IMG/VR virus record: IMGVR_UViG_2778261165_000021
DNA length: 33,405 bases
Source of the DNA: a virus
Taxonomy: Duplodnaviria > Heunggongvirae > Uroviricota > Caudoviricetes
Strand: one strand, 5' to 3'
The notes under the pieces were generated by a model that was given only the letters and a program-made list of their open reading frames with translations, was not told the DNA's origin and did no database searches. Made by a program: the position numbers and the translations under genes. Position 1 is the first letter of the stretch. Each line of letters opens with the position of its first letter. This document shows positions 4,715 to 33,405 of this stretch, piece after piece.

Positions 4715-5104
4715 ATGATTGACGCTCATGACTTCACAAGATGGGTGCGCACACAGGACACCCGTCTGGCTCCCGTTCTTCAGGGATTATTTGATCTCTA
4801 CATCCGTGGTCGTGACAACAGAGCACGCACCACAAAACCGGAGAATGCAGACACCCTTTATTTCACAGTAGACGACTGCTACCGCGTGGACTTCACACCA
4901 CACGGGCTGGCGTTGCACTGCCTGACACCACACGGAGAATCACTGCTGGCGTATTACGACTCCCCGGCCTCCGTATTTGCGGCAATGCTGGCGCATCGCA
5001 CTGCTGGCGGGTGTGCCTCGCTGAGTGAATACACCGCTGAATTTAACCGCCTTTCTGCCCTCTTCTCGCAGGAGTGGCAGCGCGTGACGGGATACCAGCC
5101 ATGA
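4715..5104 (+). CDS. Hypothetical protein upstream of A
   Basis: 129-aa ORF with AAAGAG RBS; stop overlaps the A start (ATGA). Confidence 0.55.
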   Translation: MIDAHDFTRWVRTQDTRLAPVLQGLFDLYIRGRDNRARTTKPENADTLYFTVDDCYRVDFTPHGLALHCLTPHGESLLAYYDSPASVFAAMLAHRTAGGCASLSEYTAEFNRLSALFSQEWQRVTGYQP

Positions 5105-7941
5105 ATGAGTTTGCATGGAGCTGGAATGAACCACGGCCAGCCATTGATCCGGCCAGATTTACGGAGCACAGGCAGGAAACTGAAACCGACCTGCAACGCG
5201 CCATCCGTTACTACCTTGAGGCAGACAAAAAGGCTCTGGAAGAACAGGAAGCGAAGGAGGAAGCCTTTTTCGCACAATCCACCGTGGGTAAAAAACTCAT
5301 GGCATCCCTTGAGGAAGCCGGACAGCGTGAAAAGCTGGCACAAAGCATCATCAGCAAGCGTCAGGCAACAGAACAAGACCCGGTGGCCCGTGCTTTTGCC
5401 ACACTGAAGGTGCTTCCCGTTTATCTGCGTGAACCTCTGAGCCGCCACCTCTCTTTCCTGCGCAAAAAACAGGAAGCCGATCGCCAGAAAGGCAAAAAGA
5501 GCTGGCAGGCTGAACGCTACGCGCGCGGAACCCTGCGCAAAATATTCGAACGCCTGGACCGCACCGACCACCGCTGGCTGACACCGGGTTATCGCTCCCT
5601 TGCCGGACGCGAACGCCTGGATGATTTGCTTTACCTGCCGCAGCTCAACAAGCACCAGATACAGACGCTGGCCACCATGACGGCGGCGATGTTCAGCAGC
5701 ACCTTCGAAAAACTCTGCGATGGCTTTGGCGCGACCGATGGTGAGCTGACCATGGAGGTGGCACTGAAGGCGTATCAGATGCTGGCCCGCATGGTGTTAC
5801 ACCTGCACGCCATGCCTCCACATTATGACGCACTGACAACAGACAAAGACCGCAAGAACGAACCGGACACGGAACTGCTGCCGGGCGCAATCCTCCGCCT
5901 GACCTGTGCGGAATGGTGGAAACGCAAACTGTGGCTGTTACGTTGCGAGTGGCGGGAAGAACAACTCCGCGCCGCCTGTCTGGTTTCCAGAAAAACATCG
6001 CCCTATCTGAGCCAGGACGCGTTAAGCGAGTTTCGCGCACAGCGCGAGAAAACACGCGATTTCCTGAAAAGTTTCATGCTGGAAAACGAAGACGGGTTCA
6101 CGATTGATCTCGAGACGGTGTATTACGCGGGAGTAAGTAACCCGGTCCACCGTAAAGCAGAAATGATGGCCACCATGAAGGGGCTGGAACTTCTGGCCGA
6201 AGCCCGTGGCGACAGAGCGGTGTTTCTGACTGTCACCTGCCCGTCAAAATACCACGCCACAACAGAGAACGGTCATCCGAATCCCAAATGGAACGGGGCC
6301 ACCATGCGCGACTCCAGCGATTACCTGGTTAACACGTTTTTTGCGGCGGTCCGCAAAAAACTGAACCGCGATGGCCTGCGCTGGTATGGCATCCGCACGG
6401 TGGAGCCTCACCATGACGGCACCGTGCACTGGCATATGATGGTCTTTGCACATCCGGACGAGATTGAAACCATCGTGTCCCATGTCTGCGATATTGCCAT
6501 TCAGGAAGACCGCCACGAGCTGGGCGATGACATAACTCCGCGTTTTAAGGCTGAGTACGTAGACGGCTCAAAAGGCACGCCAACCAGCTACATCGCCACC
6601 TACATCGGAAAGAACCTGGACAGCCGCGCCGTGGATGGCATCGACCCGAAAACGGGCAAGCCACGCGTTGACCACGAAACCGGAAAATCAATGGCAGAGA
6701 GCGTGGAACGCGCCATCGGCTGGGCGCGCCTTCACCGGGTCCGCCAGTTCCAGTTCTTTGGCATTCCCTCTCGTCAGGTATGGCGTGAACTCCGCCGCCT
6801 TGCCAGCCAGATGGCACGCAACCCGGAAGGCCCACAACGGCTGAAGGATGATGCAATGGATGCGGTACTCGCTGCCGCTGATGCCGGGTGTTTTGCCACC
6901 TACATTGAGAAACAGGGCGGCGTACTTGTTCCACGCAAAGACTACCTGATTCGCACCGCCTACGACCTCGCAGATGAGCTGAACGATTACGGCGAGCAGA
7001 GTGTACAGATTTACGGGATCTGGTCGCCGCTCATCGGGGAGTCTTCCCGTGTGTGCACACATCCGGATAACTGGAAGCTGGTAAGACGTAAACCTGAAGC
7101 AGAAGACAGCGCCCGCGAAAATGGTTTTGACCTTCAGGGCGGCCCTGCCGCCCCTTGGACTCGTGGCAATAACTGTCCCCGTGTACAGGAAACGGACAAC
7201 AACGGGACAGAACAGCCGGAAGAACGGCCAGCGCCGTGGCCGCAGCTCCCTGACAGCGTTGATGTGGATGAATGGATGCGCTCACTGAAACGGCACGAAC
7301 GCCGGGCGCTGATGCGTTCGCTTCGTGACAAACAGGCAAAAAACAGCAGTGATGAAATGCAGAGCTGGACACAGAGCCGCAAACAGCAGCGGCCTTTGCC
7401 TGATAACCACGAATTACTCGCTAAAGAATGGCGGGAGTCTGCTGAATCTCTCGGCCTGCATATCGGTGAACAGCAGATGCAGCACCTGTTACGGGGCGGC
7501 AGTCTGTACGTTGACGGCAGCATCATTGCACCGCAGGGATTTGAAATTGTACGCAAACCGGATACCCGCCCGGACAGCCGAATCACGCAGCTCTGGCAGC
7601 GCCTGAGCCGTAATCATGGCGTAAGCAGCACGGAGATCCGCCATAACCCGGTCGCCAGCTATCTGGCACAGCTGGGGTCATCAGACCCTGAAGCCGCCGC
7701 ACGCCTGGCATCCACACTTCAGCAGGACCAGAACACCATGAAAACACCCGTTACCGTGCTTTCTGACATGCTGCGCGCCATCCGCGACGCAGAGCACGCA
7801 CAGAGAATCAGTGAAACCACTGAACGCGCCAGCCGCAAAGCAGACCTGCTGCGGGGTAGCCTGACCAGTGGAAACAAAAAACAGACAGAAACGGGATTCA
7901 CAAATCCCGTAAATGAGCAAAAAACGTGCCGCGATATATGA
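5101..7941 (+). CDS. A: Replication initiation endonuclease (P2 A-like, rolling-circle HUH family)
   Basis: 947 aa from ATG 5101 (track ORF 5074). HUH-type motif VHWHMMVFAH and paired catalytic tyrosines in SYIATYIGKN (YxxxY). Position after the early ORFs as in P2. Confidence 0.9.
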   Translation: MNEFAWSWNEPRPAIDPARFTEHRQETETDLQRAIRYYLEADKKALEEQEAKEEAFFAQSTVGKKLMASLEEAGQREKLAQSIISKRQATEQDPVARAFATLKVLPVYLREPLSRHLSFLRKKQEADRQKGKKSWQAERYARGTLRKIFERLDRTDHRWLTPGYRSLAGRERLDDLLYLPQLNKHQIQTLATMTAAMFSSTFEKLCDGFGATDGELTMEVALKAYQMLARMVLHLHAMPPHYDALTTDKDRKNEPDTELLPGAILRLTCAEWWKRKLWLLRCEWREEQLRAACLVSRKTSPYLSQDALSEFRAQREKTRDFLKSFMLENEDGFTIDLETVYYAGVSNPVHRKAEMMATMKGLELLAEARGDRAVFLTVTCPSKYHATTENGHPNPKWNGATMRDSSDYLVNTFFAAVRKKLNRDGLRWYGIRTVEPHHDGTVHWHMMVFAHPDEIETIVSHVCDIAIQEDRHELGDDITPRFKAEYVDGSKGTPTSYIATYIGKNLDSRAVDGIDPKTGKPRVDHETGKSMAESVERAIGWARLHRVRQFQFFGIPSRQVWRELRRLASQMARNPEGPQRLKDDAMDAVLAAADAGCFATYIEKQGGVLVPRKDYLIRTAYDLADELNDYGEQSVQIYGIWSPLIGESSRVCTHPDNWKLVRRKPEAEDSARENGFDLQGGPAAPWTRGNNCPRVQETDNNGTEQPEERPAPWPQLPDSVDVDEWMRSLKRHERRALMRSLRDKQAKNSSDEMQSWTQSRKQQRPLPDNHELLAKEWRESAESLGLHIGEQQMQHLLRGGSLYVDGSIIAPQGFEIVRKPDTRPDSRITQLWQRLSRNHGVSSTEIRHNPVASYLAQLGSSDPEAAARLASTLQQDQNTMKTPVTVLSDMLRAIRDAEHAQRISETTERASRKADLLRGSLTSGNKKQTETGFTNPVNEQKTCRDI

Positions 7942-8017: not shown

Positions 8018-8977
8018 ATGAAAATTTGTATCGACGACGGCTCCACCAACATCAAGCTGGCATGGACTGAGAACGGCGAACGCCGCAACGCCATCAGCCC
8101 GAACAGCTTCAAGTCGGAATGGTCTGCGCCGTTCGGTGGCACGCAGCCCGCGAACTACATGCTTGATGGCGTGCGCTATGGTTTTGATCCGGTCAGCGAT
8201 CGCTTTGTCCAGACGACCGACACGCAATACCAGTACAGCGATGTGAATGTCATTGCCATTCATCACGCGCTGGTCAAATCAGGCATCACGCCACAGGAGG
8301 TGGATGTGGTTGTCACCCTGCCACTGAGCGAGTATTTCGACACAAACGCACAGCCGGACATGGCCAACATCAACCGCAAAAAAGCGAACGTTATGCGCCC
8401 GGTGGAGTACCAGAACGGCGAAGCATTCACTATCCGTAACGTGCGGGTTATGCCTGAATCCATTCCGGCCGGCTTTAAGGCACTGGCTGACATGAGTCCG
8501 TTTGAATCCCTGCTGATTGTGGATTTGGGCGGAACCACGCTGGATGTGGCAAAGGTTCAGGGGCAACTGGCAGGTATCAGCCAGGTGTTTTGCGATCCAC
8601 ACGTAGGCGTTTCTCTGATGGCCGATGCCGTACTGTCGGTGATGGCCACTAACGGTATGCGCACCAGTCACCACATCGCCAATACCATTATCGAACATCG
8701 CCATGATGAAGCCTGGCTGCGCCAGCACATCCACAATGACGCACATTACGCCAGCCTGATGGCGGTTATTCGTGAAAAGGAAGAAACACTGAAACAACGC
8801 GTGATCCGCGCGCTGGCGGGTTTTTCGGGTTACGGGCGGGTGATGGTTGTAGGTGGAGGAGCGGAGATTGTGGCACCCGCTATCCGCGAAGCCTGCGGAG
8901 TTAATGCGACTTTCATCGCGGACGGGGTGCCACAGTTTGCTCTGGTTAATGGGCTGTACGCAATGGACAAGGAGTAA
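8018..8977 (+). CDS. parM: Actin-like ATPase, ParM/StbA family
   Basis: 319 aa. Actin-fold nucleotide-binding motifs IDDGSTNIK, LIVDLGGTTLDV and VMVVGGGAEIV. Resembles plasmid R1 ParM along its whole length as recalled (MKICIDDGSTNIKLAW; YQYSDVNVIAIHHAL; RNVRVMPESIPAGF). Confidence 0.85.
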   Translation: MKICIDDGSTNIKLAWTENGERRNAISPNSFKSEWSAPFGGTQPANYMLDGVRYGFDPVSDRFVQTTDTQYQYSDVNVIAIHHALVKSGITPQEVDVVVTLPLSEYFDTNAQPDMANINRKKANVMRPVEYQNGEAFTIRNVRVMPESIPAGFKALADMSPFESLLIVDLGGTTLDVAKVQGQLAGISQVFCDPHVGVSLMADAVLSVMATNGMRTSHHIANTIIEHRHDEAWLRQHIHNDAHYASLMAVIREKEETLKQRVIRALAGFSGYGRVMVVGGGAEIVAPAIREACGVNATFIADGVPQFALVNGLYAMDKE

Positions 8978-8981
8978 ACCA

Positions 8982-9293
8982 ATGACGACACCAACCAGAC
9001 GGATAAGTTTCTATCTGAAGCCCGCCGCCGTCAAGAACGAAGGCGAAGCATGCGCCTGGCTGGACAGCCTTACACCAGAAGCCCGCAAAAGCGGCCAACG
9101 CGTGGCTTTTCTGGCCGGGCTGGCACTTCTGAAAATGAATCCGGCAGAGGCTTACCGACTGGCTGCATGGGCTGATGATGAGGCGTTATCAGTGACACAA
9201 ACCAGGACAGAACGCCCCCTGTCACAGCCAGTACCAACCGCACAGATAACCAGTCAGATGGCCAGAAATATCAGGGCGTTATTTCCTGAATAA
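8982..9293 (+). CDS. parR: ParR/StbB-like centromere-binding adaptor
   Basis: 103 aa from ATG 8982 with AAGGAG RBS (track ORF 8853 has a long non-homologous leader). RRISFYLKP..., AFLAGLALL and C-terminal IRALFPE resemble R1 ParR as recalled. Immediately downstream of parM-like gene. Confidence 0.65.
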   Translation: MTTPTRRISFYLKPAAVKNEGEACAWLDSLTPEARKSGQRVAFLAGLALLKMNPAEAYRLAAWADDEALSVTQTRTERPLSQPVPTAQITSQMARNIRALFPE

Positions 9294-9356: not shown

Positions 9357-9956
9357 ATGAGCGAAATCAACTATCAGGCACTGCGTGAGTTAGCAAAACA
9401 GGCAACACAGGGCGAATGGGTCGCATTTATTTCGCCGGGCAAATACGGCACGTACGCCGTGCACACACCAGGAGATAATCATCACGGAGATATTGTCGAC
9501 TGGCCTGGATTCGACGAACAGAAAAACGCAGAGAACAACGCTCGTTATATCGCAGCTTTCAACCCTGAAGTAGTGCAGGCTCTGTTGGATGAACGAGAAG
9601 CCCAAAGCAAACGCATTGCAGAGCTGGAGGCTAATTTCACGGAGCTGGCAGCGGAGAATGCCGCAATGAAGCTGTTTATCAGGGGCAGTTGCTATGTATT
9701 TGATGGAGAGCAGGATGAAATATCTGACGCGTATATCTGCGCAACAGACGGAGGAATGCCACAAACCCCAGCCACCGACGCTTTTCTGGCTGAAGTACGG
9801 GCGCAGGGCGTGGAGATGCTGGCAAAAAATCATCAGAGTATCGTCAATGCACTTAAGGGAGATTCTTTATTTTCTGATGATGAATACCGACATGCAGCTA
9901 TTGTTTCCGCAGCTGTATATTTCGCCGCAGAGCTTCGCAAAGGAGGCAGCCAGTGA
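9357..9956 (+). CDS. Ead/Ea22-like protein
   Basis: 199 aa. N-terminus MSEINYQALRELAKQATQGEW and later VQALLDEREAQSKRIAELE resemble the lambdoid Ea22-family signature. AAGGAG RBS. Visibly lower GC than the par genes. Confidence 0.5.
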   Translation: MSEINYQALRELAKQATQGEWVAFISPGKYGTYAVHTPGDNHHGDIVDWPGFDEQKNAENNARYIAAFNPEVVQALLDEREAQSKRIAELEANFTELAAENAAMKLFIRGSCYVFDGEQDEISDAYICATDGGMPQTPATDAFLAEVRAQGVEMLAKNHQSIVNALKGDSLFSDDEYRHAAIVSAAVYFAAELRKGGSQ

Positions 9957-10492
9957 GCAAAATTGACTATCAGGCACTACAAATGGCAGCAGAACGTGCA
10001 ATTCCGGCAATGGAACGCCTGTTAATATTGCCAGTTGATGATGATTTGTTAAGCGAACAGGAACTTAAAGATTACGGTGTGGATATTGACGCGATCAACA
10101 CCTTCAGAATTCTGGCTGGACCGGAAGACATGCTGGCACTGCTGGATGAACTGGAAACAGCAAAAAAGCGCATCGCTGAACTGGAAAAAATCGCCACTGA
10201 CTATGCACTTAAATTCCAGAAAGCACAGGACGCATTAAAGTATGCCGCTTTGTCGCATAGCCGGACGGCGCAACAAACAAATAATCTTGCTGTATCGCTT
10301 CCGGACATAAGCGAATATTTCATTAATGACGTATTTCAGCCCTTGCGATACGAGCGGGATGTTGAAAGAGCCATCATAAAGGCTGGCGGAAAAGCATTGT
10401 GGCAGGAGAAACACGAGGACAGAACGCATCAGTCCTGCGATGTAAATCGTGGATGGTTTAGCCCACTGACGACAGATAAAAATAACACCTAA
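9953..10492 (+). CDS. Ead/Ea22-like protein (tandem paralogue)
   Basis: 179 aa from GTG 9953 overlapping the upstream stop (GTGA), AGGAGG RBS. N-terminus SKIDYQALQMAAERA and LALLDELETAKKRIAELE parallel the preceding ORF. Confidence 0.5.
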   Translation: MSKIDYQALQMAAERAIPAMERLLILPVDDDLLSEQELKDYGVDIDAINTFRILAGPEDMLALLDELETAKKRIAELEKIATDYALKFQKAQDALKYAALSHSRTAQQTNNLAVSLPDISEYFINDVFQPLRYERDVERAIIKAGGKALWQEKHEDRTHQSCDVNRGWFSPLTTDKNNT

Positions 10493-25237: not shown

Positions 25238-25292
25238 TGCAGAGATAACGGGTAACTGGCATCATCTCCGGTTTTTATTCAGGGGGATGCTC

Positions 25293-25892
25293 ATGCTTAT
25301 TGGCTATGTACGCGTGTCAACAAATGACCAGAACACGGAATTGCAGCGTAACGCGCTGGAGTGCGCAGGATGTGAACTGATTTTTGAAGATAAAATCAGC
25401 GGAACGAAATCAGCCAGACCGGGATTGAAAAAACTGCTCAGAACGCTATCAGAAGGAGATACGCTGGTTGTCTGGAAGCTGGACAGGCTGGGCAGGAGTA
25501 TGAAACACCTGATCACGCTTATTGAGGAATTGCGGGAAAAAGGTGTTAATTTCCGTAGTCTGACGGACAGCATTGACACATCAACACCCATGGGGCGTTT
25601 CTTTTTTCACGTCATGGGAGCTTTAGCCGAAATGGAACGTGAATTAATTGTAGAGCGTACACTGGCCGGGCTGGCAGCAGCACGCGCACAAGGACGCATT
25701 GGCGGACGTCGCCCGAAGTTGACAAAAGAACAACACGAGCAAATAGCGAGGCTGATTAAAAACGGTCATGACAGGAAACAACTGGCGATCATTTACGACA
25801 TCGGCATATCGACGATTTATCGTTATCACCCTGTAGGCGATATACAGGCTGAAGAAACAACCAGGCAGACTCAGGAAAATGAAAACCGCTAA
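25293..25892 (+). CDS. Serine DNA invertase (Hin/Gin/Pin/Cin family)
   Basis: MLIGYVRVSTNDQN catalytic-serine N-terminus, resolvase core, C-terminal HTH (GISTIYRY). AGGGGG RBS 7 nt upstream of ATG 25293 (track start 25287). Confidence 0.9.
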   Translation: MLIGYVRVSTNDQNTELQRNALECAGCELIFEDKISGTKSARPGLKKLLRTLSEGDTLVVWKLDRLGRSMKHLITLIEELREKGVNFRSLTDSIDTSTPMGRFFFHVMGALAEMERELIVERTLAGLAAARAQGRIGGRRPKLTKEQHEQIARLIKNGHDRKQLAIIYDIGISTIYRYHPVGDIQAEETTRQTQENENR

Positions 25893-32813: not shown

Positions 32814-33074
32814 ATGTTCCGTTGTCCGCTTTGTGGCGCATCTGCCCGTATCCGCACCAGTCGTTCGGAAAATGATTCAAACACCGTACGGAAAAAATAT
32901 TACCAGTGTAACAACCTGGAATGCGGCATAAGTTTCTCAACACTGGAAGCTTTCCATAAATTCACATCGAAACACGCCCCCGGCGTTCACTCTTCAGAAG
33001 GTATCCCGTGGCATGAGTTGCCAGCTTCACACAGGGGAAACAATCAGATGAGTTTGCCTTTATCTCAGAATTAA
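32814..33074 (+). CDS. ogr: Late gene transcription activator (Ogr/Delta-type zinc finger)
   Basis: MFRCPLCGASARIRTSR...YYQCNNLECG C4 zinc-finger signature matching P2 Ogr; AGGGAGG RBS. Confidence 0.85.
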   Translation: MFRCPLCGASARIRTSRSENDSNTVRKKYYQCNNLECGISFSTLEAFHKFTSKHAPGVHSSEGIPWHELPASHRGNNQMSLPLSQN

Positions 33075-33264
33075 CAGGCAGAATTGCCGGAGTAACAAAA
33101 AAGCGATAGATTACGCGCGGGTGCCTTTCGGCTGATGGTCGGAGGGAATACCCGAAGGCCAGATGTGGAAAGGCCCCGGAAAACATTTCTGTTTAACCGA
33201 GGCCCTAACCGTCTAACCTTAGCAAGTGATAGGTTAGCGCCTCCCTGAAAAAGGAGCAAGCGCT

Positions 33265-33405
33265 ATGTCGCAAAAATCGCTTACGGCCATCACGTTCTGC
33301 GTGACGGCAATCCTCATCATCTGGATGCTGCACGGTTCGCTGTGCGAAATACGGATGAGCTTCTGGGGAGCGGAGTTTGCGGCGTTCTTACAGTGTAAGC
33401 AGTAA
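33265..33405 (+). CDS. Hok/Gef-family small membrane toxin (type I toxin-antitoxin)
   Basis: 46 aa: MSQKSLTAITFCVTAILIIWMLHGSLCEIRMSFWGAEFAAFLQCKQ. N-terminal TM helix, then conserved SLCE and (E)xAAF blocks as in Hok/HokA. AAGGAG RBS 8 nt upstream. Ends on the last base of the window. Confidence 0.6.
   Translation: MSQKSLTAITFCVTAILIIWMLHGSLCEIRMSFWGAEFAAFLQCKQ

Follow-up and report, generated by a model that had tools for sequence, protein, structure and literature searches.

A probable hok/sok-type toxin–antitoxin cassette without an overlapping mok frame behind ogr in P2-like prophages

The stretch analysed here, 33,405 nucleotides of viral DNA (IMG/VR virus record IMGVR_UViG_2778261165_000021; hereafter the window), is a P2-like prophage trimmed at gene borders, and our subject is the small hok gene at its end, together with the 190 bp that separate this gene from ogr. 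The window opens at position 1 with the stop codon of the minus-strand integrase gene and closes at 33405 with the final base of the hok stop. The ogr stop codon lies at 33072-33074 and the hok ATG begins at 33265, and the cassette described below starts 9 nt past the ogr stop. Because the window ends with the hok stop codon, the 3′ stem-loop, the fbi element and the terminator fall outside it, and about 70-110 nt of the hok transcription unit are missing. Positions beyond the window are given in a 100%-identical copy (L005, in which position 5001 corresponds to window position 33075). The original prediction, made from the letters of the sequence, gave the toxin gene as 33075-33405; only 33265-33405 is hok, and 33075-33264 holds the putative promoter, leader and antisense gene. 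Features are collected in Table 1.

Table 1. Features of the hok locus, in window positions unless L005 is named
Feature	Position	Strand	Remarks
ogr, late-gene activator	32814..33074	+	Pfam Ogr_Delta, 57.8 bits; context only
Candidate hok promoter	33084..33112	+	-35 TTGCCG 33084-33089, 17-nt spacer, -10 TAGATT 33107-33112; read by eye
tac element	33119..33131	+	GGGUGCCUUUCGG; 5′ end of hok mRNA; partner fbi or ucb-like box
Predicted Sok-like antisense RNA	33158..33227	-	about 65-70 nt, both ends approximate; from the fold and a strand-specific pair
Leader ORF, candidate stand-in for mok	33165..33248	+	GTG 33165 or in-frame ATG 33135 to UGA 33246-33248; not conserved
ucb-like box	33168..33179	+	GAAAGGCCCCGG; partner CCGAGGCC in the full-length fold, tac in the open fold
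Sok-target hairpin, open fold	33199..33243	+	outer stem GAGGC/GCCUC; inner stem holds the CTAACCT/AGGTTAG repeat
Candidate Sok promoter	33231..33259	-	-35 TTGCTC 33259-33254, 17-nt spacer, -10 TAACCT 33236-33231
hok start-site hairpin	33235..33265	+	UAGCGC 33235-33240 pairs with GCGCUA 33260-33265, over RBS and AUG
hok, 46-aa Hok/Gef toxin	33265..33405	+	Pfam, NCBIfam and PHROG matches; alignment of 30 homologues
Long-range coding helix	33267..33383	+	GUCGCAAA..CG (33267-33280) pairs with ~33370-33383 (GAGUUUGCGGC), first codons with EFAA codons
3′ stem-loop	L005:5335-5370	+	outside window; five compensatory pairs
fbi element	L005:5383-5396	+	outside window; partner of tac

The 46 codons of hok encode MSQKSLTAITFCVTAILIIWMLHGSLCEIRMSFWGAEFAAFLQCKQ, and the ribosome-binding site (RBS) AAAGGAG (GGAG at 33253-33256) precedes the ATG at a spacing of 8 nt, which bears out the original prediction of a 46-codon open reading frame (ORF) with a good RBS. 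The SLCE and (E)xAAF blocks that had suggested a Hok toxin were found at residues 25-28 and, as AEFAAF, at residues 36-41. The sequence and an alignment of 30 homologues place a hydrophobic N-terminal helix at residues 6-23. In this alignment residues G24, C27, A36, E37, A39, A40, L42, Q43, C44 and K45 are invariant; the tail around AEFAAFLQCK does not vary, and both Cys27 and Cys44 are conserved. The protein passes the family threshold of Pfam HOK_GEF (PF01848; 29.9 bits vs a cutoff of 22, E 4.1e-7, residues 7-44) and matches PHROG 251, 'MokW-like host killing', with 80.6 bits (E 1e-22). By sequence, the 46-aa ORF is a Hok/Gef-family type I toxin gene, and membrane damage by its product is predicted from the family. 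It already has the annotation 'Hok/Gef family protein' (WP_000078916.1) in hundreds of genomes. Searches found no solved structure of a relative and no paper on the 46-aa hok subfamily or on hok in P2-like phages, and the P2 defence-hotspot literature found by these searches mentions neither hok nor ogr.

Among NCBIfam models the best match is the HokA equivalog NF007290, and the protein is 43% identical to HokA of K-12, in agreement with the earlier by-eye comparison, which had put it closest to HokA. However, the equivalog model scores only 34 bits, where its cutoff is 89, and the phage protein is hence not HokA. The two loci share an AAFLxCK tail with the second cysteine, and their termini also agree, with GGGUGC on the 5′ side and GCACCC on the 3′ side. 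HokA has 50 aa, whereas the phage toxin has 46, and hokA/sokA is a fixed chromosomal locus and not phage cargo; in K-12 it is annotated with mokA and is split by IS150.

The whole 331-bp stretch from 33075 to 33405 is present in 1545 of 5426 complete E. coli genomes, and 1158 of the 5426 (~21%) carry ogr and hok as one contiguous block. The 331-bp block is 100% identical at two chromosomal sites. At pdxB/flk the arrangement is pdxB - int ... ogr-hok-RES-Zn ribbon-TagO-like - flk, and at pheL/raiA it is pheL - int ... ogr-hok-TM2-Com-methyltransferase - raiA. The element at pheL/raiA is flanked by a 20-bp direct repeat, ACAAAAAACGCGCCCGAAGG, from the raiA terminator, with the right attachment site (attR) about 1.7 kb past hok. 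The attachment core of this integrase type is the same sequence (L004: 3888-3907; L005: 7006-7025), overlapping the raiA terminator, between raiA and pheL. A corresponding search at pdxB/flk found just an 11-bp exact repeat, so we left that junction undefined and used the pheL/raiA site instead. The reconstructed empty site between pheL and raiA is contiguous in 5273 of the 5426 genomes and free of hok; empty sites with the same ORF, which the original prediction had named as the mark of a host gene, were thus not what we found. The block is also present in phage genome records, including P88_4B11 (100%), P88 (96%), Chuche, Shae_phiSM and others, and in P88_4B11 the gene order is ogr-hok-five cargo genes-int. 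In Salmonella, a Hok of 70% identity follows gpD-ogr in P2-like prophages at four unrelated chromosomal sites.

These observations decide between the two origins that the original prediction had offered, a module borne by the prophage or the first host gene past attR. If hok were a host gene, its association with ogr would be an accident of the integration site. The window does end at hok and has no visible attachment site, and attP of P2 itself lies close to ogr. However, the identical block stands behind ogr at several unrelated chromosomal sites, and phage genome records contain it. Moreover, because the attachment repeat encloses hok and the empty site lacks it, a host origin is already refuted, and we give it practically no credence. 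In its position inside the attachment repeats, its transfer together with the phage and its absence from the empty site, hok behaves as cargo of P2-like prophages does, and it opens the variable cargo region between ogr and attR. The locus is thus very probably a complete hok/sok-type type I toxin–antitoxin cassette, which a P2-like (Xuanwuvirus/P88-type) prophage bears as cargo between ogr and its attachment site. This places the gene in the variable ogr-attR region of about 1 in 5 complete E. coli genomes. Prophage-boundary calls that end at hok, as that of the window does, lose the cassette's 3′ end along with cargo genes that lie past it.

The cargo 3′ of hok differs among otherwise similar prophages (L001: 6747-9315; L005: 5467-6904; L006: 5247-7816). 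One set encodes RES-domain, Zn-ribbon and TagO-like proteins; the other encodes a TM2-domain protein, Com and a type II-like DNA methyltransferase. In NZ_CP043181.1 and NZ_CP043217.1 the integrase and hok ends are 100% identical to the window, and the prophage between them is ~2 kb longer (35.39 vs 33.405 kb).

The borders of the cassette can be read from its nearest relative, a 46-aa hok that adjoins lom in Stx phages and other lambdoid phages. The P2-type and Stx-phage copies are ~83% identical in DNA from promoter to fbi, equal in length and equipped with the same RNA elements; their carriers and neighbouring genes are different. Homology extends from ~33082, at the -35 of the hok promoter, to GGCACCC about 65 nt past the stop codon and then ends abruptly, giving a cassette of ~400 nt. 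Since homology ends exactly at these borders, the cassette seems to move as a unit.

For the RNA structures we aligned 22 distinct copies from E. coli P2-type prophages, P88, a Stx phage, E. albertii, Salmonella, K. oxytoca and an IncI-like plasmid, and folds were assessed by RNAalifold consensus, pair counts over the 22 copies and controls in which the 3′ partners were slid. In the closed fold 98.0% of cells are paired, vs 38-43% in the slid controls, and two-sided changes are found at 16 pairs (73 cells), vs 1-8 pairs (1-18 cells) in the controls. In this fold GGGUGCC (33119-33125) at the 5′ end of the mRNA pairs with GGCACCC at the 3′ end. The seven tac/fbi pairs are 100% paired, with three one-sided changes that all give G.U, and a four-pair extension, compensatory at 4/4 pairs, brings the helix to 11 pairs; the long-range closure of a 5′ tac on a 3′ fbi, typical of R1-type loci, is thus found throughout the alignment. 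In the same fold GGCCCCGG (33172-33179) in the ucb-like box pairs with CCGAGGCC (33197-33204) and masks the GAGG segment.

An alternative pairing is found when the leader is folded alone. Here tac pairs with GAAAGGCCCC (33168-33177), and the Sok-target hairpin is part of the minimum-energy fold and aligns to the corresponding hairpin of the Rfam sok model RF01794. Over the 22 copies the open fold has 87.9% of its cells paired, with 10 pairs changed on both sides; the tac/ucb helix is 93% paired and the target helix 83% paired, each with four pairs changed on both sides. The second feature of R1-type loci, an alternative tac/ucb pairing with an antisense target hairpin, is hence also present. 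Moreover, some positions covary with both of their partners: alignment columns 12-13 with fbi and with ucb, and column 88, the second G of GAGG, with column 58 in the closed state (ucb) and column 128 in the open state (GCCUC). Such dual-partner covariation is, at the level of aligned sequences, the signature of a switching RNA, and it fits the scheme described for R1 (PMC9841398).

Two further helices involve the coding region or its start. Both CUCC (33241-33244) and the Shine-Dalgarno GGAG (33253-33256) lie within the start-site hairpin, which is 99% paired in the consensus fold; all four of its varying pairs change to G.U only. Bases 33235-33243 are common to this hairpin and the target hairpin, and the two are mutually exclusive. 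The long-range coding helix has 12 pairs, 100% paired in the 22 copies, with four pairs changing to G.U only, and we relate the invariance of synonymous sites in the EFAAF codons to this helix. Because the unpaired probability of the Shine-Dalgarno hardly differs between RNA states, opening energies were used to compare them. The mean opening energy of the hok start region over the 22 copies is 13.5 kcal/mol in the full-length RNA, 10.9 kcal/mol in the truncated RNA and 13.5 kcal/mol in the truncated RNA with the Sok target blocked. It is lower in the truncated than in the full-length RNA in 20/22 copies, a modest difference of ~2.6 kcal/mol, and is raised again by blocking the Sok target in 18/22.

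Strict scanning against consensus signals gave no promoters here (see below), so both promoters were assigned by eye and by conservation. The candidate hok promoter would start the transcript at ~33119 and give an mRNA of ~350 nt. Its -10, in the form TAGATT, TAAATT or TAGAAT, stands at a constant distance from GCGGGTGCC in 19/20 copies. On the minus strand, 22/22 copies have a -35 (TTGCTC, TTGACT or TTTACT) and a -10 (TAACCT or TATCCT), behind which ACTTG is conserved. Counted by hand, their spacer is 17 nt for one Salmonella copy and for the type found in the window; the Stx-phage copy has 18 nt. We take this element to resemble the Sok promoter of R1.

The RNA predicted from this minus-strand promoter, from ~33227 to ~33158, has a 5′ tail, ACUUGCUAAGG, complementary to GCAAG, the conserved loop of the target hairpin, then a GC-rich hairpin, GGCCUCGG...CCGGGGCC, and then CUUUCC. 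Its fold has an energy of -34.1 kcal/mol (z = -5.5), and z is -5.5 in the Stx-phage copy and -3.9 in a Salmonella copy. An unvarying C.A mismatch in the mRNA becomes a U.G pair when the antisense strand is read, and this pair exists on that strand only. The original prediction had noticed an inverted repeat in the 190 bp between ogr and hok, which lies at 33213-33219 (CTAACCT) and 33231-33237 (AGGTTAG), and had suggested a structured leader or an antisense RNA; the leader folds and the predicted Sok-like gene are in accordance with this suggestion. The Rfam sok model RF01794 matches 33119-33278 over its full length (E 1.9e-8), on the plus strand, that is the strand of hok, because this model covers the leader. 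The conserved promoter-like elements and the fold of the minus strand give good sequence-level support for a putative Sok-like RNA.

The mok frame is different. The original prediction gave it as established that hok loci carry an overlapping mok, and its proposed check for a mok-like frame and for Sok signals ended with the promoter-like elements conserved and neither mok nor a strict-scan terminator found. We tried the upstream ORF 33135-33248 as mok and rejected it; it stops before the hok Shine-Dalgarno and is not conserved, and in the Stx-phage copy it stops after 6 codons. The frame of hok is closed upstream by the in-frame TAG at 33235-33237. There is no start codon 5-12 nt past GAGG, the site homologous to the mok start of R1. 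The sole copy with an overlapping ORF is that of E. albertii, with 79 codons. Because mok fails in this way, we file the locus as a hok/sok variant and not as a canonical three-gene locus.

Several results weigh against this reading of the locus as a hok/sok-type cassette. None of the leader ORFs is conserved among the 22 copies, whereas in R1 translation of mok up to the hok Shine-Dalgarno, or RBS, is mandatory for hok translation (PMC9841398). The strict consensus scan of the region for promoters and terminators returned neither a hok nor a Sok promoter and no Sok terminator; its sole terminator-like match is the minus-strand reading of the 3′ hairpin, and the tail of the predicted Sok RNA is not U-rich enough for the scan. 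The Rfam match, with 43.6 bits, is below the gathering score of 59. Finally, the start region of hok is still strongly structured, at ~11 kcal/mol, in the state that we call open.

According to our model, and by analogy with plasmid R1 for its later steps, a sigma-70-like promoter just past ogr would produce an hok mRNA of ~350 nt from ~33119. The full-length mRNA would be closed, with tac paired to fbi, the ucb-like box over GAGG and a hairpin over the hok RBS and AUG. Slow trimming from the 3′ end may then strip fbi and switch the RNA to the open fold, in which a short and unstable Sok-like RNA would bind the target and block Hok synthesis. When the supply of Sok ends, the stable mRNA would be translated, and the 46-aa Hok would damage the inner membrane.

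Because an overlapping mok is absent, translation of hok would have to be licensed either directly by the hairpin switch or by a short leader ORF. In a direct switch, which we consider on the basis of the modelled folds, Sok bound to the 5′ arm of the target could free the 3′ arm and so re-close the hok start site. Alternatively, Sok may block the leader ORF running from GTG 33165 or ATG 33135 to UGA 33246-33248, and a ribosome terminating there would open the hok RBS. The ORF ends just 5′ of the hok Shine-Dalgarno, and R1 requires mok translation only up to that point (PMC9841398). In five of five E. coli-type copies an ORF from GAUGUGG (33163/33165), with its start within the stretch complementary to Sok, extends as far as -38 to -19 or further and ends at or close to the hairpin; moreover, the start region seems too closed for free initiation. 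However, Salmonella-type, Klebsiella and plasmid copies have no start codon at the GAUGUGG site, frames, starts and stops differ between copies, and the GAAGG Shine-Dalgarno of the leader ORF is partly paired in both folds. Five related sequences also make weak statistics (~0.05 even if independent, by rough estimate). We therefore consider licensing by the leader ORF rather unlikely.

That the 46-aa phage clade is a mok-independent form of hok/sok, in which Sok toggles the RNA between target and start-site hairpins or acts through a tiny leader ORF, and which together with ParM/ParR would supply both stability functions of R1, is a tentative proposal that we hold with considerable doubt; under the toggle version, an overlapping leader gene would play no part. 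The clade keeps the tac/fbi/ucb switch, with compensatory changes and three-way covariation, and has lost mok, which makes it a natural comparison to the best-studied type I toxin–antitoxin system. Since the switch is kept and mok is lost, the clade could reveal what the R1 mechanism can do without. The gene family, the general mechanism and the presence of such loci in prophages are already known, and the surprise for a specialist is small; the absence of the usual mok helper frame is the only unusual trait of the cassette.

Compared with hok/mok/sok of R1 (parB), the phage cassette has the same Hok/Gef toxin family, the tac/fbi fold-back, a ucb-like box over GAGG and a target hairpin, and the promoter of its predicted antisense gene, like that of R1, overlaps the region just 5′ of hok. 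In contrast, the phage cassette has neither an overlapping mok nor a start codon after GAGG, its hok has a strong Shine-Dalgarno of its own (AAGGAG, 8-nt spacing), its toxin is 46 aa long vs 52, and its carrier is a phage and not a plasmid.

The other prophage system with which it could be confused is hokW/sokW of the Stx2 prophage Sp5, which is likewise a prophage-borne hok/sok and belongs to PHROG 251. It is the only prophage hok/sok with an experimentally shown role, in lysis and release on induction (PMC8621323); without hokW-sokW, release of Sp5 falls to half and growth arrest comes later (Takada et al. 2021, PMC8621323). However, HokW is 51 aa long and shares 31% identity with the 46-aa toxin, and its gene has an in-frame extended ORF of 70 codons. 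In AP004402.1 hokW lies at ~28.8 kb and the 46-aa hok next to lom at ~15.6 kb, 13 kb apart in the same phage. We therefore rejected a reading of the PHROG and RefSeq label 'MokW-like' as hokW; the two are separate loci, and the label is the PHROG family name.

As for the role of the cassette, addiction would be plausible. Killing of cured cells, and with it stabilisation of the prophage, is possible, although we hold it with less than even confidence; abortion of infection by other phages is somewhat more doubtful, and PADLOC matched neither Hok nor most of the cargo genes around it, which leaves a defence role without support from that database. A stability role is made somewhat more attractive, circumstantially, by a ParM/ParR pair in the same prophage. 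The pair is complete and lies at 8018-9293 on the plus strand of the window, in the variable region that separates the replication gene (5074-7941) from the portal gene. ParM (8018-8977) matches StbA_N with 275 bits and ParM_N with 230 bits, and a 103-aa ORF from ~8985, its ParR partner, matches Plasmid_stab_B with 86 bits. The phage thus carries homologues of both stability loci of plasmid R1, hok/sok and ParM/ParR.

An aid to lysis on induction, by analogy with hokW, is an unlikely role. As a main role it would mean that read-through from ogr or from late transcription, or the loss of Sok on induction, yields Hok and speeds lysis. The effect of the hokW-sokW deletion on Sp5 release and growth arrest (PMC8621323) is in line with this, and the nearest relative of the cassette is found in Stx phages. 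Read-through from ogr is possible because no terminator-like site was found between ogr and hok in a scan covering 50 nt upstream of the ogr stop and the region downstream. However, hokW is a separate locus with 31% identity, and P2-type phages have a holin and an endolysin of their own, so that we judge a mainly lytic function unlikely as well.

The cassette might also be a decaying remnant without function, carried passively like the IS-disrupted hok loci of the K-12 chromosome. K-12 hokA is split by IS150, in a Salmonella lambdoid copy (L016) both the promoter and the tac end are gone, and mok is absent here. However, the ORF, the Shine-Dalgarno, both promoter-like elements and all helices are kept down to ~60% protein identity, compensatory changes in the helices point to ongoing selection on the RNA fold, and cassettes are even tandemly duplicated. 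We regard decay as improbable, and the reading of the locus as a maintained hok/sok-type cassette is preferred.

The relatives differ in arrangement and carrier. In Salmonella P2-like prophages two or three hok cassettes follow ogr directly in tandem with a period of ~498 nt (L028-L030: 3005-4141; L025, L026: 4001-4635); the copies have diverged among themselves, every one with a promoter, a tac and an fbi of its own. In Salmonella lambdoid prophages a copy stands at the prophage edge next to fieF (L016-L019: 4001-4141), with tac end and promoter lost, and is hence probably inactive. Plasmid records rarely carry the cassette (35/72,556). One 142-kb plasmid (L035, NZ_CP025863.1: 139401-141864) holds, beside a group II intron, a piece of a P2-like prophage end made up of a truncated upstream gene, ogr, hok and genes for a Zn-ribbon and a TagO-like protein. 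A member of the 46-aa clade is found on Salmonella conjugative-plasmid contigs between a DotM-like gene and a relaxase (L032, L033: 4001-4141); its fbi is GGCGCCC, and pairing with tac is kept through a U.G pair. A search of genome contigs with the Hok alignment gave only 6 loci. Three of them, on contigs assigned to a Planococcaceae metagenome-assembled genome, a Vagococcus sp. and Xanthomonas pisi (L009, L010, L013), hold enterobacterial hok with 72-98% protein identity, most likely by contamination of the assemblies.

Two other places in the window deserve mention. Two adjacent Ead/Ea22-like ORFs (PF13935, 90 and 78 bits) lie at 9357-10492 on the plus strand, 3′ of the ParM/ParR pair and in the same variable region, and neither has a PADLOC match. 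At 25287-25892, also on the plus strand, a serine resolvase/invertase (Resolvase and HTH_7 domains) adjoins the tail-fibre genes and is probably a Cin/Gin-type switch of tail-fibre host range.

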